64,000 nucleotides of DNA from Anaerolineae bacterium (GTDB lineage Bacteria; Chloroflexota; Anaerolineae; S140-20). Below, piece by piece: positions 34,366 to 53,403 of the stretch. Each line of letters opens with the position of its first letter. Position 1 is the first letter of the stretch. The stretch lies in contig JALUTT010000181.1 in assembly GCA_027021705.1 (NCBI GenBank), positions 11,784-75,783 on the forward strand. The letters are read 5' to 3'. A model generated the notes under the pieces. The model was not told the origin of the DNA. It made no database searches and worked only from the letters and a program-made list of their open reading frames with translations. The translations under genes and the position numbers were made by a program.

Positions 34366-34393
34366 AACCCTTGTCTCCCAAAAGGCCTCTCGT

Positions 34394-36859: not shown

Positions 36860-39800
36860 CGTGGCGCACCTCTACGGTCACTTCCGCGTCGTCGGATAAT
36901 TCGCTCAAGGCTCCCCAACCTGTTGCGGGTTGGAGATTGACGGCTTCCAGCGCCTTTCGTAGAGCGCCAAAGCGGGCCTTGAATCTCAGCGGCTCGAAGG
37001 CCGGTGGAACAGGCGGCTTCTCCTCCTCCTGGTGCAACGTCTGGAGCTGCGTCAGTAGTTGGCTCCGCGGCATCTGCCCGGTGATGTACCGGGCGATGGC
37101 CTCCCGGGCTATTGCTTGCGACTCGGACTTCCGCAGCCCCTGGTACAGGTCCCGCATCTCCACGTCCTGCAGCCGGCCGACCATCTCGCGTGCCGCTTGG
37201 AGCATCTCCGGCAGGCTCTGGGGCGGAGCCGAGACCTTGGTCAGCCGGCGGATGCCGGCTTCCGAGGTAGGCTCTGCCAGCGCCCGGTCAATTGTTTCCA
37301 GGATGGCCGCGACCTGCTGCAGAGCCTGCTCCAGCTCTCGCGGGGCGCCCCCCAGCGGCTTGGCCGCTTCCGTCACCGCCTTGCGCAGTTGTCGGTATCC
37401 CTGCTCCTGTTGGGTGAAGAACTGCTGGAGGGAGGCCCAGGCCGCGTCCTGACGACGCACGCCGGGCTGGTCGGGGAGGGAGCCGGCGCCGATGGCCGCG
37501 TAGAAGGCGCTGAAGGCGGCCCACTCCCCGTGGCCCACCCGTTGGCCGGGGGTGAGCAGGTCGTTGCTGTGCAGGCTCAGTTGAGCCGGGTCCTCCACGG
37601 CCAGCGGCCCCCGCCCGCGCACAACCCGCAGGTCGCGAAAGATCACCGTCAGCCGGATCAGGAAATCGGCCAGGAAGGGTTGCAGGCCAAACTCTCTTCC
37701 CAGCCGGTTCTGCAGCTCCTTGACCCGCACGCCCTCCCCGCCTTTCAGGGCCTCCTCGATGGTCTGCACGTAGGGGGAGTTGCCCAGGTCCAGGGCATAG
37801 GCGGTGCCGGCGGGCTTGACGATGCGCAGGGGCATCCCGTAATGGGCAGCGTAATCGTGCGGCGGCCCCACCTCCGGCCCCACCCGGCCCTCTCCCTTGA
37901 CCAGCGCCCGGTAGAGGCTCTCCAACGCCTGGGAGGTGACGTCGGCAGTGAACTCGGGATGTTGACGGAAGCGGGCGTCCAGCAGCCGCGCCCCCAGGTC
38001 CTTGAGAGCCTCCTGCAGCGTGGCCCCGGCCGAAGGGTTCTCGCCGATGCTCACCGAGGCGCTGAGCCGGCCCTGGCTGTAAAGGGAGGCTAGGCCGGCC
38101 AGCAGGCTCTCCCGCAACTGAAAAGCCGCGGCCGTCCAGCTCTCCGTCAGCCGGCGTCCCTCCTCGCCGCTGTACTTCTCGGCGATGTAGGCCGTGCCCG
38201 CCGGGCTCTCGGTGAGGAAGAGGATGCGGGCCAGGTTGTCCAGCTGTTGACGCAGTTGATCGTCGGCCTCCTTGGGGATCCACACCGCGCCCGGCACACC
38301 GTTCTTGGGCGGCTTTGACGGCACAGGGTCGCCGGGGAAGCGGGGGAAGGCGATCCAGACGGTGAACTCCGCCTTGGGGTCGGGCGGGGGAAGGTGGCCG
38401 GCGCCCGTCTCCACGGCTTGGACTGTCCCCGAGCGGTTGGTGCCGCGCCACTTGATGTTCAGCTTGCGCCGGCCCTGCAGCTTGTCGGTGCCGAAGAGGT
38501 TGTTCAGAAGCCCCAACACGGCCTGGCGGCGTTGCTCGGTCACGTCCTGGCTCACCTTGCGCAGCTCCGCCATAGGGTCGAGCCCCAGGCTCAGCTCCAC
38601 CACCACCGCCTCGCCCTCGCGCTTGAAGGTGCCCAGCAGCCGGTCGCAGAGGAGGTCCACGACCTCCTCCAGTTGCTTGCGGGCCAGGATGACCACCTGG
38701 GCGTTGAGCACGGCGGCGTTGAGGGCCGCGATGACGGCGGGGGTCATGCGCCCGCGCAGGGGCGTCCCCTTGTCCGTCAGTTGGCCCAGGATGATGCTTT
38801 CCGCCACGGCCCGCCCTCGGGCGATGCGCTTGGCGTGGCCCAGGAAGTGTTCCTCCAGAAGAGGAACGACTTTGTCACGCATGATCACTTTGGCTGCCTG
38901 CAGCGCGGGCCGGTCTTTGAGCTCTCCCTCGGAGGCTTGCTCGATGAGGTAGTGGAAGGCGCGGTGGTAGGGAATGAGGGTGCCCAACGGCTCATCGGCC
39001 AGGTCGAAGAGCATATCGTACATGACGCTGATGGCGGTGCGTTCGCGGCTCAGCATGTGGGTCACCGAGACCAGGGTGTCCACGATGGCCGGATGGAAGG
39101 GGTAGAGGGCGCGGACGGCTTCCTCAAAGCGCTTGTGGCCGTAGAGTTGATGGAGCACCTCCAGTTGTTCGCCGGGGATCTGGGCCAGACTGGCTTTGAC
39201 CGCTTCGTCCAGGGCTTTCTTGCGCCCCTTTACCGGCTTGAGGACGCGCTTGCCCAGCACCTCGTACAGGTCCACGTCTTGGATGTCTACGTCCCGTCCC
39301 GCGAAGCGCCCCTTGACATTGTCTAGGATGTCCCGGCCCACGTCGCGCACCACGTCCTCCAGGGGGGCGTGGCGCACCACCAGGGCCCAGACGGGGAGGG
39401 CGGCGCCCTCGGCCTCCAGAAGGGCCTTGAGTTCGACCATGGGCCGCGTGCGGTCTTTGGCGTTGATGAGGAAGAGGGTGAGTTCGTCAATGAGGAACGT
39501 GACGGCGGTGAAGCCGTGGTGCTTCAGGTGGGCGGTGATGCGCTTCATGCCCTCGGCCATCTCCACGGCGAAGGCGCCACCGCCCACCTCAGAAGGTAAG
39601 GCGATGTGCGAGGCGATCTCGCGGGCCAGGAGTTCGCGGCCCTGGGGCGTGGCCTTCTGGGCCTCGTACTCCTGGCGGGAGGTCACCACCAGGCTGCGGT
39701 TGAAGAGGGTGTCCCAGAGGGCGGGGGTGTCGGCGGCCAGGTCCTCGAACCATCCGATGACGCGCTGGAAGTAGGTGAGTTCCACGGGGGGCAGGCCCTG

Positions 39801-40232
39801 GCGTTCCAGTTCGCGGGCGACGGCCTCGTAGAGGCCCAGGCGGAAGTCGTCGGGGCGGTCCAGGCTGTTGAAGGGCACCACGAAGACGGGGCGTTTCTCC
39901 AGGATGGCGCGCACGTCATCCGAAAGGCCGGGGATCTCCCGCGCCCAGGCGGCGGACTCCCCGCGCAGGAGCATGCCGGCGAAGGAGAGGAAGTGGGACT
40001 TGCCGGTACCGAAGGAGCCACTGACCCAGACCCCCTGGCCGGGGAAGCCCTTGTCGGCGGACTCGGCCACGCTGCTCACCACGCGCCGCAGCCCCTCGGC
40101 CACGGTGTCGGTGATGACGTACTCCCGGGCGTGGAAGACCTTGCGCTCCTCGTCGTTGATCTCGCCCACCTTGACCACCAGGGGTGGTTTGGTGGGTGGG
40201 ATAGCGATGACGTCACGGATGTGGAGGGTCAT
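36846..40232 (-). CDS. PglY/BrxC-family large ATPase
   Basis: MTLHIRDVIAIP, YVITD, SGSFGTGKSHF, FLIDEL, YPFHP, ERTA; overlaps pglZ by 14 bp. Confidence 0.85.
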   Translation of the reverse strand: MTLHIRDVIAIPPTKPPLVVKVGEINDEERKVFHAREYVITDTVAEGLRRVVSSVAESADKGFPGQGVWVSGSFGTGKSHFLSFAGMLLRGESAAWAREIPGLSDDVRAILEKRPVFVVPFNSLDRPDDFRLGLYEAVARELERQGLPPVELTYFQRVIGWFEDLAADTPALWDTLFNRSLVVTSRQEYEAQKATPQGRELLAREIASHIALPSEVGGGAFAVEMAEGMKRITAHLKHHGFTAVTFLIDELTLFLINAKDRTRPMVELKALLEAEGAALPVWALVVRHAPLEDVVRDVGRDILDNVKGRFAGRDVDIQDVDLYEVLGKRVLKPVKGRKKALDEAVKASLAQIPGEQLEVLHQLYGHKRFEEAVRALYPFHPAIVDTLVSVTHMLSRERTAISVMYDMLFDLADEPLGTLIPYHRAFHYLIEQASEGELKDRPALQAAKVIMRDKVVPLLEEHFLGHAKRIARGRAVAESIILGQLTDKGTPLRGRMTPAVIAALNAAVLNAQVVILARKQLEEVVDLLCDRLLGTFKREGEAVVVELSLGLDPMAELRKVSQDVTEQRRQAVLGLLNNLFGTDKLQGRRKLNIKWRGTNRSGTVQAVETGAGHLPPPDPKAEFTVWIAFPRFPGDPVPSKPPKNGVPGAVWIPKEADDQLRQQLDNLARILFLTESPAGTAYIAEKYSGEEGRRLTESWTAAAFQLRESLLAGLASLYSQGRLSASVSIGENPSAGATLQEALKDLGARLLDARFRQHPEFTADVTSQALESLYRALVKGEGRVGPEVGPPHDYAAHYGMPLRIVKPAGTAYALDLGNSPYVQTIEEALKGGEGVRVKELQNRLGREFGLQPFLADFLIRLTVIFRDLRVVRGRGPLAVEDPAQLSLHSNDLLTPGQRVGHGEWAAFSAFYAAIGAGSLPDQPGVRRQDAAWASLQQFFTQQEQGYRQLRKAVTEAAKPLGGAPRELEQALQQVAAILETIDRALAEPTSEAGIRRLTKVSAPPQSLPEMLQAAREMVGRLQDVEMRDLYQGLRKSESQAIAREAIARYITGQMPRSQLLTQLQTLHQEEEKPPVPPAFEPLRFKARFGALRKALEAVNLQPATGWGALSELSDDAEVTVEVRHDAEA

Positions 40233-40256
40233 GATTGTCACCTCACAACTCACAGA

Positions 40257-43200
40257 TCATAGCCAACTGCGTCTCTCCCATTCCTCTTCCGCCTGTTCGC
40301 GTTCGATCATTGACTGGAGCAAGTCAACCATGCGGCGTGCGAAGAGACGGACACGGAGATACTCATCCTCGAGCCACGGAGATATCGCTTCCAGGCGTTT
40401 TTGATAGAACGATACGAATCCCGAAATAACGCCGGGGGTGCTACTGATCGCTCCTTCAACTTCACCGAGTACCTTCCGATCATCAGTGCGTCGGATGATC
40501 TCACGGCTCAGCTTGTAAAAGGCATCCCCTTCGTTGAATTCCCGTAAGATAGTGGCTGTAGCCCGGAGCTTTTCGACCTCATCGGACTCAACCCACTCCG
40601 TGAGCACCGCGTAGAGAGTCTTATCAAGGCCGCCGGCGATGGCCTTCAGTACATAGGGGGCTTCCCAGCGGAACCAGAAGTTTTCGCGCAGCATCCAATT
40701 GCGAACACGCCGTAGAACGTCAGGGTACTCTTCGCTCTCGCGAATGCTTTCCATAGCTCGTGCAAACTGGAAGGGTACGGGTTCGTATCGTCTCTCTTGG
40801 GCCTCACGTTCATAAGCTATAGTGATGCGCTGCTCGATGAAGTCTATCACCTGCATCGGAGCAATTTGGCCCAATCTGTCCAGGCATCTTTCCACATGAA
40901 AGTCAAGCTGCGGTAATCGTCCAAAGTGCTGAATGATCTCGAGAAAGTCTTGTGGGTCCTCGAACTCCACAGCCCAACCCTCCCCTGTGCTATCCGACCA
41001 TGATAGTACCTCAGCAATGTGCCGCAAGACAGCTTCGTCGCCACGAGCCGCAATAGTTTTGAGAACCTCAACCGCGAGAGCAGGGTTATGTGGTGCGTAT
41101 TGCCGTGTCAGCCACACCATCTCATGATCCAGGGCCGCTGTATTACAAGCCACGAGTTGGCGTAGCATCTCCCAGTCTTCATCCTCCATTTGACGCCAGT
41201 CCACAAACCGGAAGCTATGCGCAGCAGCCAGCCAGAGGATCGCATCGCCGCTGGTGGTCCAATGTTTGAGGTATCTTTGCGCTATCTCGGGGACGCTTTT
41301 CCGCAATCCGGCAATCACGAGCCCAAGGTGATGTTTAAGGGTCAACTCTTCAACTACGGCGCGGTCTATGAGCTGCTGGGCCAGATCAGGATGCTGTTCA
41401 CCCAGACGCTGCAATAGCCGATTGAGCCAAGTAGTACCTGTTTCGCCAACAGTACGCGCTTGATGAGCAATTGTCTCCAAGTCGCGCAAAGCTCGATCAA
41501 AAGTGTCTGGCTTAAGCTGACCGAGGTAACGCTCGACAGCCTCCTGGCGCCGCCGCTCGGCTTCCCGCCAATCCAATTCCTTGTCCGGTTCCTCCGCGTC
41601 CCGGCGATGCCATCCAACCAGCACTCGGTAAAGTTGATAGAGTTGATGGCTGTTAAGCCGCTCACTAAGGCGGTCCAACGCCTCATCTTCATAAGCAGCC
41701 CACCGTCTGGCATGCCAGAGCCATTCCGAGATTGCGTCCAGAACGGGAAGGTCCGCTGTCTCAACCACGTCAGAGAAGAAACGGGCAGTATTCACACAGT
41801 CAGGTCGAAGCCATTCACGGATTTCATCTGGCACGCGAACTATTGAGGGGAAATGTGGGATCGCTCCATCCAGAGCCTGAACAATACGGAGTCGCTCAGC
41901 GGGAGAAGTTGCTTGACGATATGCGTTATAGAGGATGTCTAGCGCCTGCTGTCGGATGTGTCTCAAGGGCTCGGCAGGAGTGAGCAGGCCCCGATGGAGG
42001 ATCACTTTGAAAGGTTCCGTTGGATCGGCCTCAGCGCTATGTAACTCCATCGACAACATTGCTTCTACCAGTTTCAAGGCCAGGTCGAGGTTCTCCGTGA
42101 AATCCTCAGCCAGCCACCGGGGAATGGCTTCCAGAAGCGTCAGTTGCACAGCATAGGGCTTGCGCGGCTTAAATTCGGCAATTTCAGTCAACACTTTGCG
42201 CGCTTCTTCTCTCACATAGGCATAACTCGAATCGTGAGGGCAATATCTGGCAAGTTTATGCAAATAGGTGATAGTATCTCGCAAGGCGCTATACTGGGTG
42301 CGCTTCAGTATTTCGACAGCCTGACCCAACACCATCTCGTGGCTAATCTCATAAGCACCACCCCAAGGGGCACGATAGGTCTCGGGAGGCTGTTCTCTGC
42401 CATCCACGATGCGGGCGACGATCGCCAACGTATCGTCGGCTCTCAGATAAGCCACGTTCTGCAACCAATCGAGAATGGCATAGCGGGCTATGTTGCCTTG
42501 GGTATCGATAGCCCGAGACAGTTCATCGAGTCTGCGACCCAAGAGCACACCTGCTTCACGGGATTCTCCCTTGACCTCTGCCTTGGCCAAGTTAGTCAGG
42601 ATTTCTTTGGCTTTCAGATCGAAGAATGGTTCGATGACTTGTTTTTGGTAGTCGGCGCGTCGAGTTGTGGGGTCAAAGTAGTGGCTCACCAGGATGTGGT
42701 CGGCCAAGACCTCAGAGGCGATCCGAATGGTCTGCCAGTAGCGATCTATTAGGCCTGACGCTTCCAGTCGTGTAACAATGCGTTCTTCTTCAGATGGTGA
42801 GATACCGACGACCTCTTGCACACGTTGGCGGAGAGTGTCGTTGGTCAGCTCAATTGTGCCCAGAGCAGCAAGGATTTCGAGATAGTGCACATATCGATCA
42901 TCGTAGCCAGCCTCGGCCAAGTCACGGATGAGTTCATGAAAGTAGCGGGAAAGCACTTCATCTCTGGTAAGTCTGGTTACATCTTCGCCACGCTGAACCA
43001 GGCGTGCGCCCAATTGGGCGAGCAGCGGGTTACCTTCGGCCACAGCAATCAGTGCCCGACGCGCGTGCTGATCCTCGATATGGTAAGGTTCGCTTTGAAG
43101 CAGACGATCGATGTCAGCATTTGTCAGTGGACCAAGTTCCAAGTAAGCGATTTCATCCCCTGAGATTTGAGGGAAGCGAGCTGCTATATACTCAACGAAT

Positions 43201-43850
43201 ACGCTGCGTGTGCTGAGAATGAGTTTCACCTTACCGGCGTAGTCTGGATTAACCAGTACCTCGCGAAGGTGAGAAAGCGGCGTAAAACGATGGGCGTCAT
43301 CCACGACGATTACGTGCTGTTGGTCCCGATCGAGAGTAGCCAAGTCGTATTCGATGCTTTCAGCTTCAGTGCGGGCGTACCACAGTTTGACATCTTCGGG
43401 AACGATCTCTGACAAGGCGAGTAGCAATCGAGTCTTACCGATACCCCCAGGACCATGAAGAACAATGATACGTTTTTGTTCTTGGAGCCATGCCGCCACT
43501 TGCTGAAGAGTCTGCTCCCGTCCCACCATTTCTCCCCTGTAGCATCCAAGCGCAGTTTGCTCAATCCGCACTGCAAAATCCTGAACTGTGAGTAAGGATC
43601 GAAATCCAGTATGAACGGCCTGCCATATAGCGACTGCATCTGGGCCTTTGATAATACAGACTATGTTGTTATCACCAGTTATAACGACAAGGTCGTGCGC
43701 GTCTCCTCCTAATGCCACAGCCCGATCACCAGTGGCAAGGGTAATCCGTCCTGTTTGAAGGGCTTGGCGCAAGGTGGCGATGTCGGCATCAGTGTAGGTG
43801 CCGGCTGCAATGCGGTCGAGAACACGCTTCAATTCGTTAAACTCCGTCAT
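40257..43850 (-). CDS. Large STAND-type ATPase: short helical (EAD-like) N-terminus, amyloid-like motif, long helical C-terminal sensor
   Basis: HGPGGIGKT, VIVVDDAH, LILSTR, EGNPL; N-terminal LATGDRAVALGGDAHDLVVITGDNNIV. Confidence 0.8.
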   Translation of the reverse strand: MTEFNELKRVLDRIAAGTYTDADIATLRQALQTGRITLATGDRAVALGGDAHDLVVITGDNNIVCIIKGPDAVAIWQAVHTGFRSLLTVQDFAVRIEQTALGCYRGEMVGREQTLQQVAAWLQEQKRIIVLHGPGGIGKTRLLLALSEIVPEDVKLWYARTEAESIEYDLATLDRDQQHVIVVDDAHRFTPLSHLREVLVNPDYAGKVKLILSTRSVFVEYIAARFPQISGDEIAYLELGPLTNADIDRLLQSEPYHIEDQHARRALIAVAEGNPLLAQLGARLVQRGEDVTRLTRDEVLSRYFHELIRDLAEAGYDDRYVHYLEILAALGTIELTNDTLRQRVQEVVGISPSEEERIVTRLEASGLIDRYWQTIRIASEVLADHILVSHYFDPTTRRADYQKQVIEPFFDLKAKEILTNLAKAEVKGESREAGVLLGRRLDELSRAIDTQGNIARYAILDWLQNVAYLRADDTLAIVARIVDGREQPPETYRAPWGGAYEISHEMVLGQAVEILKRTQYSALRDTITYLHKLARYCPHDSSYAYVREEARKVLTEIAEFKPRKPYAVQLTLLEAIPRWLAEDFTENLDLALKLVEAMLSMELHSAEADPTEPFKVILHRGLLTPAEPLRHIRQQALDILYNAYRQATSPAERLRIVQALDGAIPHFPSIVRVPDEIREWLRPDCVNTARFFSDVVETADLPVLDAISEWLWHARRWAAYEDEALDRLSERLNSHQLYQLYRVLVGWHRRDAEEPDKELDWREAERRRQEAVERYLGQLKPDTFDRALRDLETIAHQARTVGETGTTWLNRLLQRLGEQHPDLAQQLIDRAVVEELTLKHHLGLVIAGLRKSVPEIAQRYLKHWTTSGDAILWLAAAHSFRFVDWRQMEDEDWEMLRQLVACNTAALDHEMVWLTRQYAPHNPALAVEVLKTIAARGDEAVLRHIAEVLSWSDSTGEGWAVEFEDPQDFLEIIQHFGRLPQLDFHVERCLDRLGQIAPMQVIDFIEQRITIAYEREAQERRYEPVPFQFARAMESIRESEEYPDVLRRVRNWMLRENFWFRWEAPYVLKAIAGGLDKTLYAVLTEWVESDEVEKLRATATILREFNEGDAFYKLSREIIRRTDDRKVLGEVEGAISSTPGVISGFVSFYQKRLEAISPWLEDEYLRVRLFARRMVDLLQSMIEREQAEEEWERRSWL

Positions 43851-45289
43851 CAGTGGTCCCTCTCTTCACCTGTTTCTCTGGCCAAACGTGCTAGGTTATG
43901 AGACACGGTGTTTGCCAGTTCCTGATCGCCGGCCTGGATAGCTAGCCGTAAAGCCTCAGCGTAGAGAACTCGGGATCGAACGATGTCACCTTCAAATTGA
44001 CAGGCCAAAGCCAAGTTGTTGAGTGCAATGGCTTCACCTTTCCGATTCGCGAGGCTCTGAAAAAGCTGGCGCGCTTGTTCAAGGTTTTCACGGGCCAGAT
44101 GAAACTCTCGTTGGTGCAAATGGATTTCACCGATTGCTGCCAACGTATGAGCCTCGGCGTTCTTGTTGTTCAGCATACGCCATAGACTCAGTGCCTTCTT
44201 CCGATACGTGAGCGCCTCATCGAAGGCGTAGCGGGTCTGATGGATCGCAGCGATATTATCCAGCAGCGTAGCCTGTTCAACTTTGGACCCTAGCCCTTCA
44301 AAGAGTGTTAACGCTCGCTCGTTGTAGTCCAAAGCACGTTCAAAATCACCAATTGCACTGTAGAGGCTGCCCAGATTGGCTAGAGATATTGCTTCCTGCA
44401 AAGGAGCTCCGATCTCACGGAAGATCTCCAGGGCCTGTTCGCTATAAAGCCGGGCCTTATCAAGTTGTCCTAGACACTGCGCCAGTTCACCCAGGTTTCC
44501 CAGAGCAACCGCTTCATGGAAGCGATGACCCGTCTGGACAAAGAGTTCCAGTGCCCTGGAACCATAGGTTAACGCTTTGGAATACCACGCATCTCGTTCA
44601 GCTGATGAAACAACGTCTGCTTTGTTTCGACACGTAATTGCCAGATTGTTTAGTGTCGAGGCTATGGCGACCTGATCATCTTGAGTACGGTATAAAGCCA
44701 GTGCTTGTTCATAGAACGAGATGGCATCGTCCCATTGCTCTAAATCGGCATAAGCCCGGCCCATGTTCTGCAAAACGGTTGCTTCGCCTGAAGAGTCACC
44801 TTCGACACGGAAGAGTTGCAATGCTTGTTCGTAATAGTGCAAGGCTCCAGTTATTTTACCCTCAGCCTGGGATACTAATCCCAGCCCGTTAAGAGCCCTG
44901 GCCTGGCAAGGACGGTCATCCAATTGACGAAAGATGGTCAGCGCCTGCTCATAACATTCACGGGCTCGAGACCACTCGCTCAGTGTATACCACGCAGCAC
45001 CCAGGTTATTCCAGAGAGCACCCACGTCGTGGGTTTGACCCTGGTTTTGCGCGGCAGCGAGCCCGCGTTGATACCATGCAATGGCTTCCCGCCACAAAGC
45101 GCGTTGCTCAAGAAAGGGGCGCACTGCCCATACGTAGGCTAATATTAGCCCTGCATCACCGTTGATGTCGTTCACCCAGGTCCAAGCACGGCGAATTTGC
45201 TCCAATTCACCTTCAAGCCGCTGCCAGTCACCAGGGTTAGATTGGATCAGGGAAAGATAATAGTACGCGTACCGTTCCCAGGCACTCAC
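43850..45289 (-). CDS. TPR protein 3 with N-terminal NLR arm segment
   Basis: ~40-aa repeats (NNLG..Y...A...YEQAL..FR); N-terminus shared with the two upstream TPR genes. Confidence 0.9.
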   Translation of the reverse strand: MSAWERYAYYYLSLIQSNPGDWQRLEGELEQIRRAWTWVNDINGDAGLILAYVWAVRPFLEQRALWREAIAWYQRGLAAAQNQGQTHDVGALWNNLGAAWYTLSEWSRARECYEQALTIFRQLDDRPCQARALNGLGLVSQAEGKITGALHYYEQALQLFRVEGDSSGEATVLQNMGRAYADLEQWDDAISFYEQALALYRTQDDQVAIASTLNNLAITCRNKADVVSSAERDAWYSKALTYGSRALELFVQTGHRFHEAVALGNLGELAQCLGQLDKARLYSEQALEIFREIGAPLQEAISLANLGSLYSAIGDFERALDYNERALTLFEGLGSKVEQATLLDNIAAIHQTRYAFDEALTYRKKALSLWRMLNNKNAEAHTLAAIGEIHLHQREFHLARENLEQARQLFQSLANRKGEAIALNNLALACQFEGDIVRSRVLYAEALRLAIQAGDQELANTVSHNLARLARETGEERDH

Positions 45290-45291
45290 GT

Positions 45292-46815
45292 TTAACCGGT
45301 CGTTGATATCTGCTCCAAACGTTCTCGAAGTTTGGTCAGGTGAAAAGCATGTTGCTCTACCTCAGGATCACCGACTGATCGTTCGTAATCCACAACAATT
45401 TGGAGAAGTTCCACTGCACGCGGTAAATCGCCTGCGCGTTCGTATAACCGGCTTAGGTCCCAGGTGTAGATCGCTTCCCCTCCCTTATCTCCGATCTCGC
45501 GAGCGATATGTCGTGCCTGTTCATAGTACTCTAATGCCTTCTGGATATCTCCCAACTGCCAGTAGACCAATCCCAGCCGGCTCAACCGGATGCTTTCTCC
45601 CCATCTATCGCCTATGTCACGAGCAATCTTCAAGGCTCGTTGGTAATATTCGATAGCCTTGGACGTGTCGCCCAAATCCTGCAGAATGCGGCCCAGATTG
45701 CTGAGCCACGCCCCCTCGTTTTGCCGGTCACCCACACGGTGAGCAATTTCCAGGGCTTGTTCGTAACAGTGTGTAGCTTCTTGCCACTCGCCCAGGTCAG
45801 CGTACGCCATTCCCAGGATACCCAAGCGAGCCCCTTCTGCTTGTAAATCTCCAATCTCCCTGGCAATCTCCACAGCACGTTTAACGTACTCAATCGCCCT
45901 GTCCGGATCGCCCAGAACAAGATACGTTCGGCCCAGGTTACTCAGCCACGTCCCCTCACTCAGCCGGTCACCAATGTCACGGGCTATCTGCAACGCCTGC
46001 TTGAAACATTCAATAGCCTTTTGCCAGTCTCCCAGGTCAAGCCAGCCACGCCCCAGATTGCCCAACCAGACCCCCTCATTTCGACGGTCACCCGTGTCAC
46101 GGGCAAACCGAAGAGCCCGCTCATAGTACGAGATAGCCGTTCGCACTTCTCCCAGGTCAGCATAGGCGAGACCCAGATTCCCCAGATCAGCTCCTTCGCT
46201 GCGCCGATCCCCTATCTCTCGATCAATCGCCAATGCTTGTTCGAAGCAGGAGATGGCTCGTTGGGTCTCTCCCAAGCTCAGGAGGGCCAACCCAAGATTA
46301 CCTAGCCAGATAGATTCCTGTTTGCGGTTCTGTAACTCGTGGTGAATCGTCAGGGCCGCCTCAAAGTGCCGGATAGCTTTGTCAATCTCCCCAATGTCTA
46401 AGTAAACCAGCCCCAAGTTGCCCAGACGGCTACCTTCTGCGCCCCGATCACCAACATCCTGTGCAATTCGCAGAGCCTGTTCATAACACTCGATGGCCTT
46501 GCGTGCTTCGCCAAGGCGGTAATACGCTAATCCCAGGTTCGCCAACATTACACCCGCTACCTGATTACCGTTCGGAAGTGTTCTTGCCACCACCAAGCCT
46601 CGCTCATTCCAAGCGATGGCCTCCAGCCACAGTCCGCGCATCTCCTGAAAGGGGAAGAAAGCTTGAACGTAAGCCAGGACCAAATCCTTGTTCTCCTCTT
46701 TGCTCACCCAGGCCCAGGCACGACGAATCTGGTCGAGCTCACGTTCGACCGCTTGCCAATCGCCGTTTTGAGTCACTGCCAGATAGTAGCGCGCGTGCCG
46801 CTCACGGGGGCTCAT
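45292..46815 (-). CDS. TPR protein 2 with N-terminal NLR arm segment
   Basis: Regular GDRxxEGxxLGNLG repeats; start ATG 46815 overlaps the upstream stop (ATGA). Confidence 0.92.
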   Translation of the reverse strand: MSPRERHARYYLAVTQNGDWQAVERELDQIRRAWAWVSKEENKDLVLAYVQAFFPFQEMRGLWLEAIAWNERGLVVARTLPNGNQVAGVMLANLGLAYYRLGEARKAIECYEQALRIAQDVGDRGAEGSRLGNLGLVYLDIGEIDKAIRHFEAALTIHHELQNRKQESIWLGNLGLALLSLGETQRAISCFEQALAIDREIGDRRSEGADLGNLGLAYADLGEVRTAISYYERALRFARDTGDRRNEGVWLGNLGRGWLDLGDWQKAIECFKQALQIARDIGDRLSEGTWLSNLGRTYLVLGDPDRAIEYVKRAVEIAREIGDLQAEGARLGILGMAYADLGEWQEATHCYEQALEIAHRVGDRQNEGAWLSNLGRILQDLGDTSKAIEYYQRALKIARDIGDRWGESIRLSRLGLVYWQLGDIQKALEYYEQARHIAREIGDKGGEAIYTWDLSRLYERAGDLPRAVELLQIVVDYERSVGDPEVEQHAFHLTKLRERLEQISTTG

Positions 46816-48236
46816 CTCGTCCTTCCCCTGCGCATGAAACGCCGTGCTATTTGTGCAAGACGAGCAAGAGGTTTCTGGATGTTTCGCTTCGCTGCCGGCC
46901 CCGTTTGTTCCTGAGCTGGCCACTCAGGCGATTCATTGACCTGTATCAAGGTGCTCTCTCGTTCCAGAACGAGACTGCGATTCCGGCGAATAACCGCGCT
47001 AAGGTGTTCATCTCCGATTTCTTGAGCAAGGCTCAAAGCCTGTTCATAATACATTACCGCCCGATGTTCCTTGCCTAGACCTTCGGCAAGATTGCCCATT
47101 GCCGCCAGCAAGCGCGCTTCCATCTGCTTCTGTCCTATTTCCCGGCTTATGCGCAACGCTTGCTCGTAGTATCGAGCTGCCCTTTCGAGTTTGCCCAGAC
47201 GATGATAAGCCTGTCCAAGGCTCGCAAGCCGACCACCTTCGACAACCCTGTTGCCTATGTGGCGTGCAGCAACCAGGTTCTGCTCAAAACACTGAATAGC
47301 ACGCTCAATCTCACCTGTTTCCAGGTAAATATCACCAAGACCGCCTAATAGATCGCTCTCTTGAATCCTGTCACCCATTAAACGCGCCAAATTCAATGCA
47401 TCCTCAATAAGTTCTACCGCCTTTGAAAGGTTACCTTCTATCCGAGCAATACTTGCCAGGCTATACAAAAACCCTATCTCCAGGTCCTGATCTCCTGCCA
47501 AGAGAGCGTGCTTCAATCCTTTTCGGTATGTTTGGCGTGCTTTGCGCCAATTGCCAACATCGAGGAGTGCATTCCCTCTCATCTGGAGTGCAAGCGCGAT
47601 AGATCTATGATCACGCTGCTTAGAAGCAAGAACATACATCTGTCTTTGCAGTCTTTCCGCCTGACGTAGATTACCCAGGCGACGGAAGGCGCTTTCCATG
47701 CTCATCAAGGCAACAAACTCTGTCTGCCAGTCTTTGGCGTTCTGCGCCAGAATCTGTGCACGTTTGTAGCATTCAAACGCTTTTGTTGTATCCCCCATCG
47801 CCAAATAGGCACTACCAAGCCGCAAAAGTATCAGGGATACAATACGGTTCCCGTGTTGCTCTAGAGACACGGATGAGAGGAGCGAATAGGCTCGCTCACA
47901 GCAATCGGCAACCTGCTTTGAATCGCCCAGGTTGTCGTGGACTTCACTGAGTCGCAAAAGAGAGAAAAGTTCGGCGATTTTGTCCTGTTTGCTCCGCGTT
48001 ACCTCTAGCTCGCGCTGTGTCCATTCAAGCGCCTCTTTCCACAGACCGCGCAGTTGTAAGTGCGGATAGAACGTTTCTACGTAATCCGATAGCAGTTGCG
48101 GATCCCCTTGAGCAGCAACCCAATTCCACGCATGCCTTATTTGCGGCCATTCGGCGTCGAACCATTGCCAATCCTTAAGATGGGCTTTGGCATATTCCAG
48201 GTAAAATCGAGCGTGTCGTTCCAGCACCTTGCTCAT
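46812..48236 (-). CDS. TPR protein 1 with N-terminal NLR arm segment
   Basis: TPR repeats; ATGA-coupled to the NB-ARC gene. Confidence 0.9.
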   Translation of the reverse strand: MSKVLERHARFYLEYAKAHLKDWQWFDAEWPQIRHAWNWVAAQGDPQLLSDYVETFYPHLQLRGLWKEALEWTQRELEVTRSKQDKIAELFSLLRLSEVHDNLGDSKQVADCCERAYSLLSSVSLEQHGNRIVSLILLRLGSAYLAMGDTTKAFECYKRAQILAQNAKDWQTEFVALMSMESAFRRLGNLRQAERLQRQMYVLASKQRDHRSIALALQMRGNALLDVGNWRKARQTYRKGLKHALLAGDQDLEIGFLYSLASIARIEGNLSKAVELIEDALNLARLMGDRIQESDLLGGLGDIYLETGEIERAIQCFEQNLVAARHIGNRVVEGGRLASLGQAYHRLGKLERAARYYEQALRISREIGQKQMEARLLAAMGNLAEGLGKEHRAVMYYEQALSLAQEIGDEHLSAVIRRNRSLVLERESTLIQVNESPEWPAQEQTGPAAKRNIQKPLARLAQIARRFMRRGRTR

Positions 48237-49381
48237 AGTCCCATCTTTTCCATCATTTCCGCCGCATAGTCGGCCAGCAGCGCATGCATCCAGTAGCGCT
48301 CGCCCCGACGCTCCACCAGACCGCGTTGGATAAAGCGCGAGATGGTCGCTTCAGCTTCTTCCACCGAACATTCCCACACATGAGCAGCAGCCTTGATCTC
48401 CCACGTAAGTGGCTCGCCGCCGAAGACGGCCAGCATGGCAAAGCGTTCTTGGTCGGTCTTGCTCAGCCGCTCCACGCTCATCCCCAGAATCGCCTGAAGG
48501 GAGACGGGTTGGTCTTCGGCCAGACCTAGGCGTCCTTCCGCCTGGAGCAGCTGCAAACGGGCTTCCCGGTGCTCCATGAGCTCATCCAGCAGCCGTTGCA
48601 TCCGCGTTGGCACGTCAGCCTCGCTGGCTAGCAACCGCCCTGCCAAGGTCAGAGCCAAAGGCAGGAACTCTAGCCGTTCACAGAGACGCATTGCGTTTTG
48701 CTCATCAGCGGCAACAGCTTCGGGTGCCAAGCGGCGTAATAGTGCCAGAGCAGCCTCCGGTTTCAGCACATCTACCCGCAGTGTCCGTCCGCGTGTGGCC
48801 AATGTATAAGCAATGGGTGCCTCACGGGTGGTAAGGACCGTACGACAACGAGGACCGGCGACCATGAAGTACTGACCGTGGGTTACCTCCCAAACATCAT
48901 CCACAATCAGCAGCACGCGTCGGTGATAAAGAACGGCCCGGAGACGATCACGACAGGCATTCTCATCGCGCTCTGGTAGCAAATCTACCCCAAGGGCCCG
49001 ACCCCACCCATCGAGGAGGATGCGAATGGTTGGGTTAGGCCCCAAGGCTACCCAAAGCACACCATCGGGGAAGAGCTTGGGAATGATCTCTAACCGTCCT
49101 AAGGCGATGGCTAGGGTTGTCTTGCCGATGCCGCCCATCCCACGCAGAGCTACTGGGGGGATATCAGTCGCCTGCTCATCATCAAGAGCCAGCAGGTCGA
49201 ACAAGCGAGTCAGGTCCTCGTCACGGCCGAGAACACCCTGGGGTGGGAGCGGCGGCGTCATAAACGGTGGCGGCGTTCGCGTTGCTGGCATACCGACGGT
49301 AGCAGCCGCTTGGTCACCGATAGCTAGGCCGTAGACGGTGCCATGAATCGTCACCTTGTGCCGATCGAGTTCGTTGCTCAT
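48233..49381 (-). CDS. Stand-alone NB-ARC protein with N-terminal amyloid-like motif and no sensor domain
   Basis: GMGGIGKT, LLIVDDVW, LTTR, FLPLAL (GLPL), YWMHALL (MHD); stops about 15 aa after MHD; GAGGAG RBS. Confidence 0.9.
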   Translation of the reverse strand: MSNELDRHKVTIHGTVYGLAIGDQAAATVGMPATRTPPPFMTPPLPPQGVLGRDEDLTRLFDLLALDDEQATDIPPVALRGMGGIGKTTLAIALGRLEIIPKLFPDGVLWVALGPNPTIRILLDGWGRALGVDLLPERDENACRDRLRAVLYHRRVLLIVDDVWEVTHGQYFMVAGPRCRTVLTTREAPIAYTLATRGRTLRVDVLKPEAALALLRRLAPEAVAADEQNAMRLCERLEFLPLALTLAGRLLASEADVPTRMQRLLDELMEHREARLQLLQAEGRLGLAEDQPVSLQAILGMSVERLSKTDQERFAMLAVFGGEPLTWEIKAAAHVWECSVEEAEATISRFIQRGLVERRGERYWMHALLADYAAEMMEKMGL

Positions 49382-49437: not shown

Positions 49438-49980
49438 TCAGGATTCGCTTGCTTCTCCAGATGCTGGTGGTTCAGCTCCTTCTACGTTCACATTAACCAG
49501 TGCCTGGTTGCCAAGAGCCATCCCCCTGGCTTCGCCGACATTCACGCTGTATTTCCCCTGTTGCACCACGTTCTGGTCACCGGTCACGATGATGCTGCCT
49601 TCAATCTTTCTAGCTGCCACGCTGTGTTCACCGCTAGCAATTACGGTTACGCCCATAGCCTTTGCCTTTTCCCACAATTGGGCCACTTCAGCAGCCAGTT
49701 CTTCGTCCTCGGACAGGATTTTCCTGAGTTGCAGGCGCAGGGCGGCTTGGGCGTCCCCATCTTTCGGCGCTGCGGCCACATCCTGCACTGCTTCCCGTGC
49801 CGCTGGCTTGGCCTCCACCTTGGAGCGCAGTTTGCCCCACAGCGCCTTGGCTTTCTCCCAGGCGTCGCCACCCAGTTTCTTGCCTGCTTCCTCAGTCGCT
49901 CTTTCACCTGCCTTGAGCAGGTAAGGCAAGAAAGGGGTAAGAAAAGCGGCTACGTCCTTCGCCAGCATTGCTATGTCCAT
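49438..49980 (-). CDS. Small helical (Bell/HeLo-like) protein with two C-terminal amyloid-like motifs
   Basis: Hydrophobic N-terminal helix (AAFLTPFLPYLL), ~105-aa helical domain, then a G/V/I/N/Q-rich tail; AAGGAG RBS. Confidence 0.7.
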   Translation of the reverse strand: MDIAMLAKDVAAFLTPFLPYLLKAGERATEEAGKKLGGDAWEKAKALWGKLRSKVEAKPAAREAVQDVAAAPKDGDAQAALRLQLRKILSEDEELAAEVAQLWEKAKAMGVTVIASGEHSVAARKIEGSIIVTGDQNVVQQGKYSVNVGEARGMALGNQALVNVNVEGAEPPASGEASES

Positions 49981-49995: not shown

Positions 49996-52900
49996 TTATC
50001 CCATCACCACATACGGATACGGCTCCACGTCCCCGATGATGCTCCGCAGCCCCTCCCGTACCTCCGGATCCTCGATGTCCGGCGCCTCTTCCGGCAAAGT
50101 GATGAGCCGGGCCACCCAGCGGTAGAAGGGCGTTTTGTCCTGGGCCTCTTCCGCCAGGGTGAGGAAGATGTTGGCCTGGGCCTCCGGGCTCCACCCCGTC
50201 CAGCCGTACAAATCCCGATTGACGCCGTCGAAGCGGAAGAAGCGCTCGTGGAGGACGTCTACCTTCTTGGGCTTGCGGCCCACCAGCACTTTCTCCTCGT
50301 CGAAAGGGATGGGCCGGCAGTCCCAGTCCATGCACTCGCGCACGAACTGCTCCGCCGAAATGGGCCGGCCGCCGTAGTAGACCGCCCGCAGGGGCTCGAA
50401 CTTGGGGTTTCGCGCCAGAATACCGGCGACCTCTGCCGGGGTGAGCGGCCGCTCCCGCAACGGCGGCTGGGCGGCGAAGATGTCTTCGATGAGGTCGCAG
50501 ATGTAGTCGCGGATTTCGAACTGCATCTCTTTATGCCAATCGAAATCGTGAAGGAGATCCGAGGATTCCCAATCTGCTAATGCCGAGACGACCTCCTCTT
50601 CAAGTTGATAAATGTCTCGCACGCAGCCATCGACTTCTCTTTGTAGTTCCACCCACCTTTGAGCAAGTTGCTCAAGATTGCCGCGATATGCTTGCTGGCG
50701 AGTTTGTAAGTCGGCTAGTGACTCGAAATGCACGTCTCGTATCAGGTGATACGGATGTAACGCGTTGATCTGCTCCACGAGGCTTGTCATTTCTTGTGAA
50801 AGTGCTATCAGTGTCTCGGCTGCAGTTCCATCTGGCACTGGGATCGGGAACCCTTTGATGTGATGGCCATAGATGTCGAAATACTGCTGGCGCACCCGGC
50901 TTGCCGTTCTCGCCACGTAGAAAGCAAACAAAGACGAATTCATCAACGCTGCCAAATGGAAAGTAAGTTCCCCTTCATCCAATTTCGGGTACGCAACCTG
51001 GGCTGGATGATCCACCAAGAATCGGCCTATACTGTCACCGAAGGCATGTGGGCGCAACACCACGCTGGGCCAGGCAATCTTCGGCACGCCCAGGCGGGCG
51101 TTGGTCTGATGGAGCCGGAAAAAGGGGATGCCAGCGTCCTTGTAAGTCATCCGTTCCCAGGTGGCTCGCGCCCAAAGATATTCCTTGTACCTCAGTAGGT
51201 AACGGTAAGCGTTGGGATACCGTTCGGCGAAATCGGCGATAAGTTCGCCTGTCTCCTTATCATGGGTGTAAAGCACATACGTCTGCTCCTTCTTCCGGTT
51301 CCCGTGCCAAGTGACGGTCCAGTTGCGGATGTTCTTCCCCCGCAGGCAGGGGATGCAGATTTCCCGCTCCAGCTTGTTCCGGCGGATGAAGCTCTCCGTG
51401 ATGTAGTCGCAGAAGACCGGGTCGGCGTTGGTCATGAAGTCCACACCGATGCGCGCGTAGTCGGCCAGGGTCTTGTCGGAGGCGGCCCGGATTTTGCCCA
51501 GCAGGTCGCGGGCGCTGCGGCGCAGGGTCCAGGGATGAGAGCGGAAGTGCTCCTGCCGCTCCCAATAGTGACCGGCATAGTCCTTGAAGACGGCACCCCC
51601 TCCCCGGCCCTCCCACCCCCCTCCGGCTCCCCCCTGAGAGGGGGGAGTGAGCAGGCAGTGCAGGGCGGCCCATGTCTCCTCTCGCGTCCGGCCCGCCGGC
51701 TGGTAGGTGGCCAGCACCTCCACCGGCGCATCGGCGGGCACGGGGGCATCGTCCTCCGGCCGCTGCACCACGATGAGGGCGGGGTAGGCGCCGGCCTCGA
51801 AGACCTGGGCGTCGGTCAGGTCGGCGAAGAAGAGCAGGCGGTAACGCTCGCCCGCCAGCAGCGCGGCCAGCTTCTTGCCATAGGCCTGCTTGGCGAACTT
51901 GCCGCTGGTGATGTAGCCCAGGTAGCCACCGGGCACCAGCAGTTCCAGCCCCCGTTCGACAAAGGGTACCGAGAGGTCAAAGTTGCCACTGGCTGTCTTG
52001 TAGTTTGTGCGCAGGTACTGGACGAAGTCCACCCGCTCCCAACTGCCGTTCACCGGTGCGACCACCTCGGCCCCCTGACGGTGGATGCGCACGTAGGGCG
52101 GGTTGGCGTTGACCACGTGGAAGCCCTTGGCCAGGGCGTCCCGCAGGTCCACCCGCAGGTGGGTTAGCTCCCGGCCGTACCAGCGGGCCACAGGGTCCGT
52201 CTCCCGGCGGGGCGGCCGGCCCCACTCGAAGGTGGGCAGCGTTTCCTGCTGCGGCGGCTTGATCAGGCTGTTGGCCGTGTAGACGTTGAAGGTGATGTCC
52301 TCGCCCCACTTTGAGACCCCCCTCCGGCTCCCCCCTACAAGGGGGGAGGGAGAGGCCAGGCGAACGCCTTCCAGGAAGAGGCGGAAGAGGGTGATGCGGG
52401 TGGCGAACTCGGAGATGTCCACGCCGAAGAGGTTGTTCTCCACGATGCGCTCGAAGCGCTCCAGGGGCGTCAGGTCCGGGTCCTCGCGGGCCAGGTGCGC
52501 GTCCAGGCGGCGGTAGGCACGCACCAGGAAGTGGCCGGTGCCGCAGGCGGGGTCCAGGTAGCGCAGCTCGTACACGCCGAACTCCCACACCGCCGGCTCC
52601 AGGGTGCGCTCCAGCAGGAAGTCAATGATGAAGTCAGGGGTCGTGTAGTAGCCCAGCCGCTTGCGCTCCTCGGCGTCCATCAGGTGCTCGTAGAGGTCGC
52701 CCAGGGCGCGGGTATCCATCTCCCGCAGGGCGGGCAGATGGCCCACGGTGTCCAGCAGGTCGCGGGCCACCTCGTCGGAGGGCGGGATGAGCTCGTAGCC
52801 GGTCTCCTTGAAGAGGTCGTAGGCCACGGGCAGGTAGGCCAGGTCGCGCACCGCGTACTCCAGGTAGTCGGCCCAGGTGAGGCGGGGCGCCAGGTCGCGC

Positions 52901-53316
52901 AGGGTGCGGAAGATGTCCCCGCGCAGGGCCACTTTGCGGGCCGGGGGCGGGAAGAGGCCGTAGTCCTCGGCCACCTTCAGGAAGAGGGCCTTGAGGACGT
53001 AGACGGTGGCCGCGGTGTGGACATACTGCGGCTCGTTGACGGCCACACCCTGTTGGCGGGAGAGTTCCTCGCACCGCGCGGCGACCTCCCGTTGCAGCGT
53101 CGCGTCCCCGCGGAGGGTGCGGGCCAGGTCGGCCTCCAGCCGGCGGTGCAGCGGCTTCAGGCGGGTCACCAGGTCGTTTAAGGCGGGGGATGGCAGAGTG
53201 AGTTCCGGTTGCCGTGCCCGGCGCCCACCCCGGGCTCCCTGCCCCTTGCGGCCGCGGGAACGGCGCTGTCGGCCCTTCTTCTCGGGAACAGGGTTGCCGA
53301 AAAGGTCCCGGTCCAT
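49996..53316 (-). CDS. pglX: PglX-like adenine DNA methyltransferase (Eco57I/type IIG-like architecture)
   Basis: LGDLYE, YYTTPDFI, YLDPACGTGHF, FGVDI, VNANPPY, then a TRD region. Start placed at ATG 53316 (53385 also possible). Confidence 0.85.
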   Translation of the reverse strand: MDRDLFGNPVPEKKGRQRRSRGRKGQGARGGRRARQPELTLPSPALNDLVTRLKPLHRRLEADLARTLRGDATLQREVAARCEELSRQQGVAVNEPQYVHTAATVYVLKALFLKVAEDYGLFPPPARKVALRGDIFRTLRDLAPRLTWADYLEYAVRDLAYLPVAYDLFKETGYELIPPSDEVARDLLDTVGHLPALREMDTRALGDLYEHLMDAEERKRLGYYTTPDFIIDFLLERTLEPAVWEFGVYELRYLDPACGTGHFLVRAYRRLDAHLAREDPDLTPLERFERIVENNLFGVDISEFATRITLFRLFLEGVRLASPSPLVGGSRRGVSKWGEDITFNVYTANSLIKPPQQETLPTFEWGRPPRRETDPVARWYGRELTHLRVDLRDALAKGFHVVNANPPYVRIHRQGAEVVAPVNGSWERVDFVQYLRTNYKTASGNFDLSVPFVERGLELLVPGGYLGYITSGKFAKQAYGKKLAALLAGERYRLLFFADLTDAQVFEAGAYPALIVVQRPEDDAPVPADAPVEVLATYQPAGRTREETWAALHCLLTPPSQGGAGGGWEGRGGGAVFKDYAGHYWERQEHFRSHPWTLRRSARDLLGKIRAASDKTLADYARIGVDFMTNADPVFCDYITESFIRRNKLEREICIPCLRGKNIRNWTVTWHGNRKKEQTYVLYTHDKETGELIADFAERYPNAYRYLLRYKEYLWARATWERMTYKDAGIPFFRLHQTNARLGVPKIAWPSVVLRPHAFGDSIGRFLVDHPAQVAYPKLDEGELTFHLAALMNSSLFAFYVARTASRVRQQYFDIYGHHIKGFPIPVPDGTAAETLIALSQEMTSLVEQINALHPYHLIRDVHFESLADLQTRQQAYRGNLEQLAQRWVELQREVDGCVRDIYQLEEEVVSALADWESSDLLHDFDWHKEMQFEIRDYICDLIEDIFAAQPPLRERPLTPAEVAGILARNPKFEPLRAVYYGGRPISAEQFVRECMDWDCRPIPFDEEKVLVGRKPKKVDVLHERFFRFDGVNRDLYGWTGWSPEAQANIFLTLAEEAQDKTPFYRWVARLITLPEEAPDIEDPEVREGLRSIIGDVEPYPYVVMG

Positions 53317-53403
53317 GGTCACACCGCCCCCTTCAAGCGCTTGATTTCCGGCTTGAGCGCCTTCGCCAGGGAGACCATTAGACATAACCGCTCTTCCCCT
53401 ACA

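Follow-up and report, generated by a model that had tools for sequence, protein, structure and literature searches.

A putative multi-sensor STAND module with a sensor-less NB-ARC switch and three separately encoded arm-TPR proteins in a BREX-like cluster of an Anaerolineae bacterium

Receptors of the nucleotide-binding leucine-rich repeat (NLR) type and other signal transduction ATPases that have numerous domains (STAND) have usually been investigated as one-chain proteins, whose sensor, arm, and switch only engineering can take apart. AfsR (PDB 8k60/8jke), PH0952 of Pyrococcus horikoshii, and MalT are such proteins, with a nucleotide-binding oligomerization domain (NOD), an arm, and tetratricopeptide repeats (TPRs) in one polypeptide, and the available text of two papers on MalT and PH0952 (PMC4381067, PMC6468293) provides the autoinhibition logic of arm and sensor that is used here. 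We describe a locus of an uncultured filamentous-type Anaerolineae bacterium, contained in 64,000 nucleotides of contig JALUTT010000181.1 (assembly GCA_027021705.1, positions 11,784 to 75,783); this whole stretch is called the window, and all coordinates are positions in it. The locus encodes the same NB-ARC/NOD core as these three proteins, but its NB-ARC chain ends after the winged helix, arm and TPRs are encoded separately and in three versions, and there is no DNA-binding output domain. In our view it is probably a conflict module of the STAND/NLR type, split by nature and with several sensors, that is most likely directed against phages and that a BREX-like cluster carries as cargo. The architecture is well supported; the mechanism is unproven.

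Antiviral STANDs (Avs, bNACHT) have in common with the window a STAND switch, a repeat sensor, a variable N-terminal effector, a defence-island setting, and a patchy, horizontally moving distribution, but the characterised Avs and bNACHT systems are described, in the parts of the literature available, as single proteins, whereas the module in the window is split. The effector-associated domain (EAD) systems of multicellular bacteria (Kaur, Burroughs, Iyer, Aravind 2020/2021) and the Bell/BASS NLR pairs (Dyrka et al. 2020) have, in the accessible sections of these papers, an effector or adaptor gene beside the STAND gene that shares a homotypic motif with the STAND N-terminus, and the window is alike in this respect. 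In the same sections the split lies between effector and NTPase and the NLR is drawn with NB-ARC and TPRs in one chain, whereas the window splits off the sensor; the available text of Kaur 2020 also holds one case with TPRs on a vWA protein and a TIR-AP-ATPase as a separate gene. A 2026 survey of Avs proteins clustered sensors of >=400 aa in the same protein, and in its available text "split proteins" occur only in a methods line, on Avs7/Dsr1. Surveys that require a repeat sensor in cis, or that cluster cis sensors of >=400 aa as that text describes, will miss split systems. Our literature search found no description of a sensor-less NB-ARC protein, or a clade of them, served by several arm-TPR genes, in a scope that did not extend to supplements (e.g., the source data of Kaur 2020/2021). 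What appears to be new is a clade of sensor-less NB-ARC switches with several arm-TPR genes, and what is known, from the available parts of the 2026 survey and Kaur 2020, is STAND fission mentioned in passing. The split NB-ARC proteins form a large clade with many effector types.

Several sensors also feed one oligomerising switch or executor in the NAIP-NLRC4 inflammasome and in plant sensor/helper NLR networks, which are functional analogies; each partner there is a complete NLR with its own NTPase, whereas the sensors in the window lack an NTPase, and our proposal is that they complement one NB-ARC without a covalent link. If this is true, one switch would serve exchangeable detectors, in a prokaryotic counterpart of the animal and plant sensor/helper arrangements, and a naturally detachable sensor and arm would permit direct tests of binding, competition, cassette swaps, and oligomer stoichiometry.

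All genes of the module lie on the minus strand, as read from the sequence and its open reading frames (ORFs; Table 1). The preliminary description had reported an NB-ARC gene that stops after its MHD equivalent, followed by three TPR genes joined through ATGA, ATGA, and a 2-nt gap, and all of these features are present. The ATG of TPR1 overlaps the NB-ARC stop codon, and the ATG of TPR2 overlaps that of TPR1, in each case as ATGA, the gap separates the TAA of TPR2 from the GTG of TPR3, and the TGA of TPR3 overlaps the ATG of the following 1197-aa gene by 1 nt (TGATG). The longest ORF for TPR2 begins at GTG 46923, and its start was taken as ATG 46815 because the arm alignment supports 46815, not 46923. 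Overlapping start and stop codons are an ordinary mark of translational coupling. From their sequences, the NB-ARC gene and the three TPR genes are predicted to yield four separate, tightly coupled proteins and not one chain.

The C-terminus of the NB-ARC protein reads ...YWMHALLADYAAEMMEKMGL before the stop codon, which falls 9 residues past the MHD-like motif YWMHALLADYA. A Pfam scan of the 382-aa protein found NB-ARC (PF00931; 86.9 bits against a cut-off of 23.5, E 1.6e-24, residues 71-274) and no other domain. The best PDB match of a profile of 26 NB-ARC homologues is AfsR 8k60, residues 277-615 (E 1.5e-21), and the profile also matches residues 149-447 of Apaf-1, the span matched being nucleotide-binding domain (NBD), helical domain 1 (HD1), and winged-helix domain (WHD), with nothing beyond. 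YWMHALLADYA is aligned to YRFHDLVRLYA of AfsR and, in Apaf-1, falls where the match ends, at residue 447. In addition to the residues given in Table 1, Walker B LLIVDDVW (157-164) and sensor-1 TTR (184-186) are invariant in the 26 homologues. The Pfam score, the Walker A, Walker B, and TTR motifs, and a winged helix ending in an MHD-type His place the protein among the STAND/NB-ARC ATPases, and as the NBD-HD1-WHD span is complete and the ATPase and MHD motifs are invariant, it looks like a working nucleotide switch. The repeat sensor that a canonical one-chain NLR carries in the same polypeptide is here encoded by the next genes, and the arm, the HD2-like helical segment between WHD and sensor, exists as the N-terminus of each TPR protein.

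This arm is a homologous helical segment of ~80 aa shared by TPR1, TPR2, and TPR3. Within the ~80 N-terminal residues, identity to TPR1 is 46% for TPR2 and 43% for TPR3, and 30 columns are invariant; the full-length identities are 33% and 24%. A shared N-terminal segment followed by diverged TPR arrays had been noted before, and arm identity indeed exceeds body identity in all three pairs of the window (arm/TPR body 43/30, 41/24, and 58/32%). By these alignments the shared segment is real, far beyond chance. A profile built from the three window arms was searched against 1.84 billion protein representatives and matched 398 proteins at E<=0.001 and 115 at E<=1e-10. Arm position was sorted for 149 of the 150 matches listed, namely those that re-matched the profile. 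Among these, the arm begins at residue <=10 in 63/149 and at residue 11-60 in 23/149, none of them with an NB-ARC, follows ~10 residues behind an NB-ARC module in the same chain in 56/149, and is ambiguous in 7/149. As had been assumed at the outset, the arm comes directly after the winged helix in fused proteins, and because at least 56 of them place it there, the split boundary in the window is exactly the WHD/arm linker. The arm profile found no relative among PDB sequences (best E 0.4).

The same boundary recurs in close relatives of the NB-ARC protein. None of its 120 best near-length homologues (62-100% identical, 332-628 aa) matches the arm profile, and their precomputed Pfam domains comprise NB-ARC, AAA-type, and various N-terminal domains, with no TPR family; the longer members carry extra N-terminal HTH, BTAD, hydrolase, and EAD domains. 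Twelve proteins of >=670 aa are >=56% identical, and 11 of the 12 are long through N-terminal effector domains (TIR, caspase, kinase, DUF4062, PF13749, metallophosphatase or PNP) and have no TPR. The sole one of the 12 with arm and TPRs in the same chain is the metagenome protein P0271 (1121 aa, 70% identical); all other fused NB-ARC-arm-TPR proteins are <=46% identical. In a FastTree tree of 224 NB-ARC modules, from which 16 of 240 proteins were left out as their match did not span residues 60-360, the window's clade has 130 members with SH-like (Shimodaira-Hasegawa-like) support of 100; in 129 of them the chain stops behind the winged helix, P0271 being the single fused member. The P0271 junction (...DYAAEMDVGAGIMSSSWERYAQYYL...) retains the beginning of the TPR gene, Met and first residues, and the protein looks like a secondary natural re-fusion or an indel. 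Its domain order is the fused order expected from the docking model described below.

Gene neighbourhoods were compared in 22 distinct loci, comprising the window and others from metagenome contigs and from genomes of its class, all with an NB-ARC match of >350 bits at 57-100% identity to the query; the duplicates L025 (= L017), L033 (= L032), and L036 (= L035) were removed. The NB-ARC ORF stops within 0-4 residues of the query's end in every locus, and the next same-strand ORF bears an arm in 20/20 other loci with downstream DNA (L034 ends at the contig end); this ORF is shortened to 153-157 aa in L018 and L024, and is short and without a start codon in L023. The 21 NB-ARC/arm junctions, window included, comprise 4-nt overlaps in 11, 1-nt overlaps in 2, and gaps of 4 to about 50 nt in 7 loci. 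Stand-alone NB-ARC genes accompanied by a varying number of arm-TPR genes were sought and found, with 1 to 4 arm genes downstream by the strict three-sequence profile and one or two more upstream in each of L018, L019, L020, L024, L031, and L034. These counts are lower bounds, because Pfam shows further adjoining TPR-only genes (L003, L017, L018, L019, L020, L024, L031). Contigs of a related strain, 90-97% identical, from two other public runs of different studies (X2, X3) together bridge all three module junctions and the junction of TPR3 with the next gene, with no indels in the junctions covered, that of NB-ARC and TPR1 among them; these are contigs, not reads, and rare variants could escape. 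The preliminary description stood to fall if close homologues were always fused, and the opposite was found. Because 129/130 clade members end after the WHD and an arm gene comes next in 20/20 loci, the split is read here as a family trait, ancestral and stable in the window's clade. Close NB-ARC homologues are patchily distributed, occurring in 7/400 other genomes of the class.

The same genome has a second, more distant split locus (L022:4691-8429, on contig C144 of G000), where two arm-TPR genes, encoding 405 and 443 aa, come after the gene of a 426-aa NB-ARC. This genome also encodes several single-chain NB-ARC-repeat proteins of about 1050-1480 aa. At L023:3460-7150 (complete genome record CP059258, = L004), the small protein that the window encodes upstream of NB-ARC is fused to NB-ARC in a 582-aa open frame, and the arm ORFs are short (107-189 aa) or without a start codon, so that this looks like a decaying copy of the system.

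Docking of the arm was modelled in one complex job, using the NB-ARC (26-row alignment) and residues 1-200 of TPR1 (alignment of 37 arm-TPR proteins). The runs gave ipSAE (interface prediction) scores of 0.63, 0.74, and 0.75 (median 0.74), with 0.00 for the best of 3 controls, contact agreement between runs of >=96%, and a partner pLDDT (predicted local distance difference test) of >=86. The tool's mark is reached by 116/157 solved complexes and 2/215 mismatched pairs, figures that are roughly valid here, where own alignments were used. For TPR1, then, a model that might have predicted no interaction, and so spoken against assembly in trans, passes instead. The modelled contacts join NB-ARC residues 316-337 (winged helix), 116-135 (NBD), and 377-382 with arm residues 2-15, 27-39, and 63-68. 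WHD residues M316, F320, G321, P324, T326, and W327 are invariant in the 26 NB-ARCs, and arm residues R7, L13, Q32, and W72 are >=90% conserved in the 37 arm-TPR proteins. The arm is predicted to dock on the winged helix and NBD of the NB-ARC.

The AlphaFold2 (AF2) model of TPR1 is an all-helical superhelix with a pLDDT of 91.7; a Foldseek search with it returns generic TPR matches, LGN-type best, with no information on the arm, and in PADLOC TPR1-TPR3 match generic "TPR" models only. In a tree of the 37 arm-TPR proteins, TPR1, TPR2, and TPR3 fall in three separate, well-supported lineages. The nearest relatives of TPR1 are in L032 (56%), L024, L026, and L018, with orthologues at 52-56% identity in L024, L026, and L032; TPR2 is nearest to L024:13026-14555 (74%) and then L001:12657-14198, and TPR3 to L032:4804-6243 (61%). 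The lineages recur across loci in differing sets and orders, and a recent tandem sensor duplicate occurs in L035 only. At L002 the NB-ARC is 90% identical, yet the first sensor is only about 34% identical to any window sensor. The earlier picture of three diverged copies has to be revised accordingly, as an origin of the three TPRs by local duplication is ruled out by orthologues in other loci and they represent three old sensor lineages instead. A conserved switch with reassorting sensors fits the idea of interchangeable sensors, the use of all three by one NB-ARC being unproven. TPR1 residues ~436-474 (46812-46930, minus strand) form a low-confidence linker and then a strongly basic amphipathic helix (…KPLARLAQIARRFMRRGRTR) that has no equivalent in TPR2 or TPR3.

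The earlier account of NB-ARC and TPRs holds up; it had overlooked the output side, with a small effector or adaptor gene and the NB-ARC N-terminal motif, and also the coupled second STAND and the BREX setting. The small protein has a conserved helical N-domain (residues ~3-108) and a G/N/Q/V-rich tail (113-180), modelled by AF2 at a pLDDT of about 68-93 for the helices and below 50 for the tail, a combination that is compatible with Bell/BASS proteins and not diagnostic of them. Its family has 718 homologues, the best 120 at 54-100% identity, some of which carry Pfam EAD10 (PF19954), and comprises two length classes, of about 142 aa (without the second tail segment) and about 170 aa. PADLOC assigns it to 0 families, and a likeness to the ZAR1 coiled coil (Z 4.5) was set aside as within noise for helical bundles.

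The tail was compared with its neighbours by local alignment with matcher-like settings, using the threshold of 40 given in the available text of Dyrka et al. As in Bell/BASS pairs, where the motif at the effector C-terminus is that of the adjacent NLR N-terminus, the tail (~148-172) aligns with NB-ARC residues 1-45 at a score of 42 over 24 residues, which 0/2000 shuffles reach. The NB-ARC motif concerned keeps I12, G14, L19, G22, and D23 at >=90% in the 26-homologue alignment. An upstream part of the tail (~109-139) aligns with the EAD10 of the 1197-aa STAND at a score of 44 (0/2000 shuffles), and an internal repeat in the tail is not significant (172/2000 shuffles). The 1197-aa protein has a Pfam EAD10 match of 37.4 bits (cut-off 24.1, E 2.6e-9, residues 1-54) and weaker nSTAND5/6, AAA_16, and HEAT_2 matches, and is read as another switch, built as one chain, whose EAD10 motif the small protein may share. 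Because its tail matches the N-termini of both the NB-ARC and the EAD10-STAND-HEAT protein, the small protein is the likely effector or adaptor of the module, and its tail seems to hold two different docking segments, one per STAND. In other loci, it is fused before NB-ARC (L001, L023) or encoded by a separate upstream gene (L019, L020), or caspase, CHAT, and Macro proteins bear a segment that matches its tail region; clade members instead have fused TIR, caspase, kinase, DUF4062, PNP, trypsin or HTH N-domains, and some have HTH or BTAD N-domains.

Three further observations concern this side of the locus. At L034, a metagenome locus, a homologue of the C-terminus of the 1197-aa protein adjoins arm-TPR and NB-ARC genes, and at L019 an EAD7-DUF4062 gene and an EAD7-NACHT-HEAT gene come after the split module in an analogous arrangement. 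The X2/X3 strain, 90-97% identical elsewhere, stops matching exactly within 49279-49828, which comprises the first ~34 codons of the NB-ARC gene, the spacer, and most of the small-protein gene; the adaptor region may be swapped or hypervariable between strains.

We infer ligand sensing, activation logic, effector action, and the defence role by analogy, starting from what is observed of gene structure, conserved split, arm homology, ATPase motifs, motif matches, and defence-island setting. In the mechanism we propose, each TPR protein would plug its five-helix N-terminal arm into one conserved NB-ARC socket, made up of the C-terminal tail together with residues 316-337 of the winged helix and 116-135 of the NBD, and would so rebuild in trans the NOD-arm-sensor arrangement of the single-chain relatives. 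On the model of MalT, PH0952, and Apaf-1, the NB-ARC would be held closed and ADP-bound by the docked arm and sensor, and a ligand on one TPR would release this closure and allow ATP exchange and oligomerisation. As the sensors belong to three old lineages, one switch would be divided into three receptor species of different specificity. Oligomerisation would cluster the ~30-residue N-terminal motifs of the NB-ARC, which may recruit or template the matching tail of the small protein in the style of EAD10 or amyloid signalling, and the EAD10-STAND-HEAT protein may feed the same small protein via the second tail segment. The preliminary description had proposed a receptor assembled in trans from one ATPase and interchangeable sensors; its split and its arm homology stand, the docking is backed by the model, and physical binding, ligand sensing, and interchangeable use stay conjectural. 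More tentatively still, and with the balance of our judgement somewhat against it, the clade-wide invariant WHD socket might accept any member of a horizontally exchanged library of arm-TPR cassettes, with specificity evolving through gene shuffling and not receptor mutation, and the two STAND switches, converging on one small effector via separate tail motifs, might make up a small prokaryotic sensor/helper network.

Could the split be a broken gene or an assembly artefact, a one-chain NB-ARC-TPR protein cut by a frameshift or sequencing error, with decaying duplicates as the extra TPRs? Fused relatives with the arm directly behind NB-ARC number at least 56, the close relative P0271 is fused, and the short or startless arm ORFs of L023 show that decay occurs. 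The same end boundary in 129/130 clade members, however, together with an arm gene next in 20/20 loci, mostly with start/stop overlaps, three intact TPR ORFs that each have orthologues elsewhere (TPR1, the only one folded, reaching the pLDDT given above), independent contigs without an indel at the covered junctions, and a P0271 junction whose retained Met and first TPR residues point to secondary fusion, leaves this reading barely credible. It was rejected on the clade, locus, and contig evidence, which backs the earlier view that the arrangement is not a simple frameshift artefact. Programmed recoding is nearly as hard to sustain. If the ATGA overlaps were sites of programmed frameshifting or read-through, the cell would make fused NB-ARC-TPR chains, in keeping with the 4-nt overlap at 11/21 NB-ARC/arm junctions and with P0271, a natural fusion showing that a fused chain is tolerated; but start/stop overlap is the ordinary signature of translational coupling, junction geometry varies among 4-nt overlaps, 1-nt overlaps, and gaps of 4 to about 50 nt, in the window itself 2 nt separate TPR2 from TPR3, which starts with GTG, and in 6 loci arm-TPR genes lie upstream of NB-ARC, where fusion by frameshifting is impossible. 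The variable geometry and the upstream genes led us to reject recoding as well.

That the TPR genes are independent neighbours (e.g., scaffolds or chaperones), descended from NLR sensors and without NB-ARC contact, is improbable. TPR arrays are generic binding modules, the TPR1 model best matches LGN-type TPRs, and the arm is only modestly more conserved than the TPR body, all of which such neighbours would explain; they would not explain adjacency and coupling in 20/20 loci, an arm kept at the very N-terminus (start residue <=10 in 63/149 among the matches listed), an invariant WHD surface, and a docking model that passes. A more serious contender, although still an unlikely one, has the docked TPRs act as inhibitors or guards, such that a phage factor which removes or degrades a TPR protein frees the NB-ARC to oligomerise, or has the module regulate transcription or development instead of serving immunity. 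In MalT and PH0952, the contacts of arm and sensor are autoinhibitory, according to the available parts of PMC4381067 and PMC6468293, a separate polypeptide could dissociate fully, and HTH and BTAD N-domains in clade members, as well as a best PDB match to the regulator AfsR, suit a regulator. On the other hand, this copy is without a DNA-binding domain and its adaptor motif matches a small non-enzymatic protein, the BREX slot holds other defence genes in a relative, and several old, divergent TPR lineages per locus fit diversified recognition better than simple inhibition. Activation by ligand and activation by release cannot be told apart, as the same data fit both.

Several points weigh against the split, multi-sensor conflict module that we favour. 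Binding is predicted from a single structure-prediction job, in which split-gene halves can score well by likeness to single-chain STANDs, a concern tempered by the lack of PDB sequences related to the arm; for TPR2 and TPR3, docking is extended by homology from the TPR1 model. Arm contact residues are modestly more conserved than the rest of the arm (top-residue frequency 0.59 vs 0.47), the gain for NB-ARC contact residues is small as well (0.83 vs 0.78), neither difference being used as support, and arms are slightly more conserved than TPR bodies across the 37 proteins (34% vs 29.5% mean pairwise identity). The proposed mechanism does not explain how three sensors competing for one socket would give a productive oligomer. 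In PADLOC-DB 2.0.0, 0 families match the NB-ARC, which is thus assigned to no validated defence family; judging by the HTH and BTAD members, part of the NB-ARC family may regulate transcription rather than defend. When the fold of the small protein was compared with 48,161 chains, nothing matched clearly (best Z 5.5). At 20.7 bits, the Pfam EAD10 match of this protein stays below the cut-off of 24.1, and the NB-ARC N-terminal motif does not match the EAD10 of the 1197-aa STAND significantly (101/2000 shuffles reach the score).

Table 1. Genes and motifs of the split module and its flanks, with positions in the window.
Feature	Position	Strand	Size or residues	Details
Small protein	49980..49438	minus	180 aa	upstream of NB-ARC
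NB-ARC switch, no sensor	49381..48233	minus	382 aa	order: N-terminal adaptor motif, NBD, HD1, winged helix
NB-ARC N-terminal motif	49286..49360	minus	residues 8-32	HKVTIHGTVYGLAIGDQAAATVGMP; resembles small-protein tail
Walker A / P-loop GMGGIGKTT	49115..49141	minus	residues 81-89	G81, G83, G84, G86, K87, T88, T89 invariant
MHD-like motif YWMHALLADYA	48263..48295	minus	residues 363-373	end of winged helix; Y363, H366, A367-Y372 invariant (26 homologues)
TPR sensor 1 (TPR1)	48236..46812	minus	474 aa	arm at 47991-48236
TPR sensor 2 (TPR2)	46815..45292	minus	507 aa from ATG at 46815	arm at 46576-46815
TPR sensor 3 (TPR3)	45289..43850	minus	479 aa	GTG start; arm at 45047-45289
EAD10-STAND NTPase-HEAT-like repeat protein	43850..40257	minus	1197 aa	ATG start; downstream of TPR3
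PglX-like methyltransferase	49996..53385	minus		upstream flank; PADLOC PglX 7.7e-83; Pfam Eco57I 1.4e-22
BrxC/PglY	40253..36846	minus		downstream flank; PADLOC BrxC 6.9e-62
PglZ	36859..34394	minus		PADLOC 1.7e-36
BrxL	34611..32806	minus		PADLOC 2e-111

The split module is flanked by pglX and brxC in a BREX-like cluster, in which PglX, BrxC/PglY, PglZ, and BrxL, the set by which BREX is recognised, all lie together; BrxA and BrxB were not identified, three upstream ORFs being without a Pfam or PADLOC match. The guanine-cytosine (GC) content falls from 0.65-0.69 to 0.50-0.59 at about 40-51 kb. In a relative (G208, L107:438-4282) with BrxC 78%, PglZ 72%, and BrxL 92% identical, the slot upstream of brxC is occupied by genes for AbiEi and a HamB-like helicase of the Hachiman type in place of the NLR module, and the slot is interpreted from this comparison as a variable cargo site. 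Taken together, the BREX flanks, the GC drop, the other cargo in the relative's slot, and the patchy 7/400 distribution mark the module as mobile defence-island cargo. The low-GC tract also reaches the 3' part of pglX (50000-51500), at 0.54-0.58 against 0.64-0.69 in the rest of the gene, which points to a joint exchange of the cargo and the C-terminal part of the methyltransferase.

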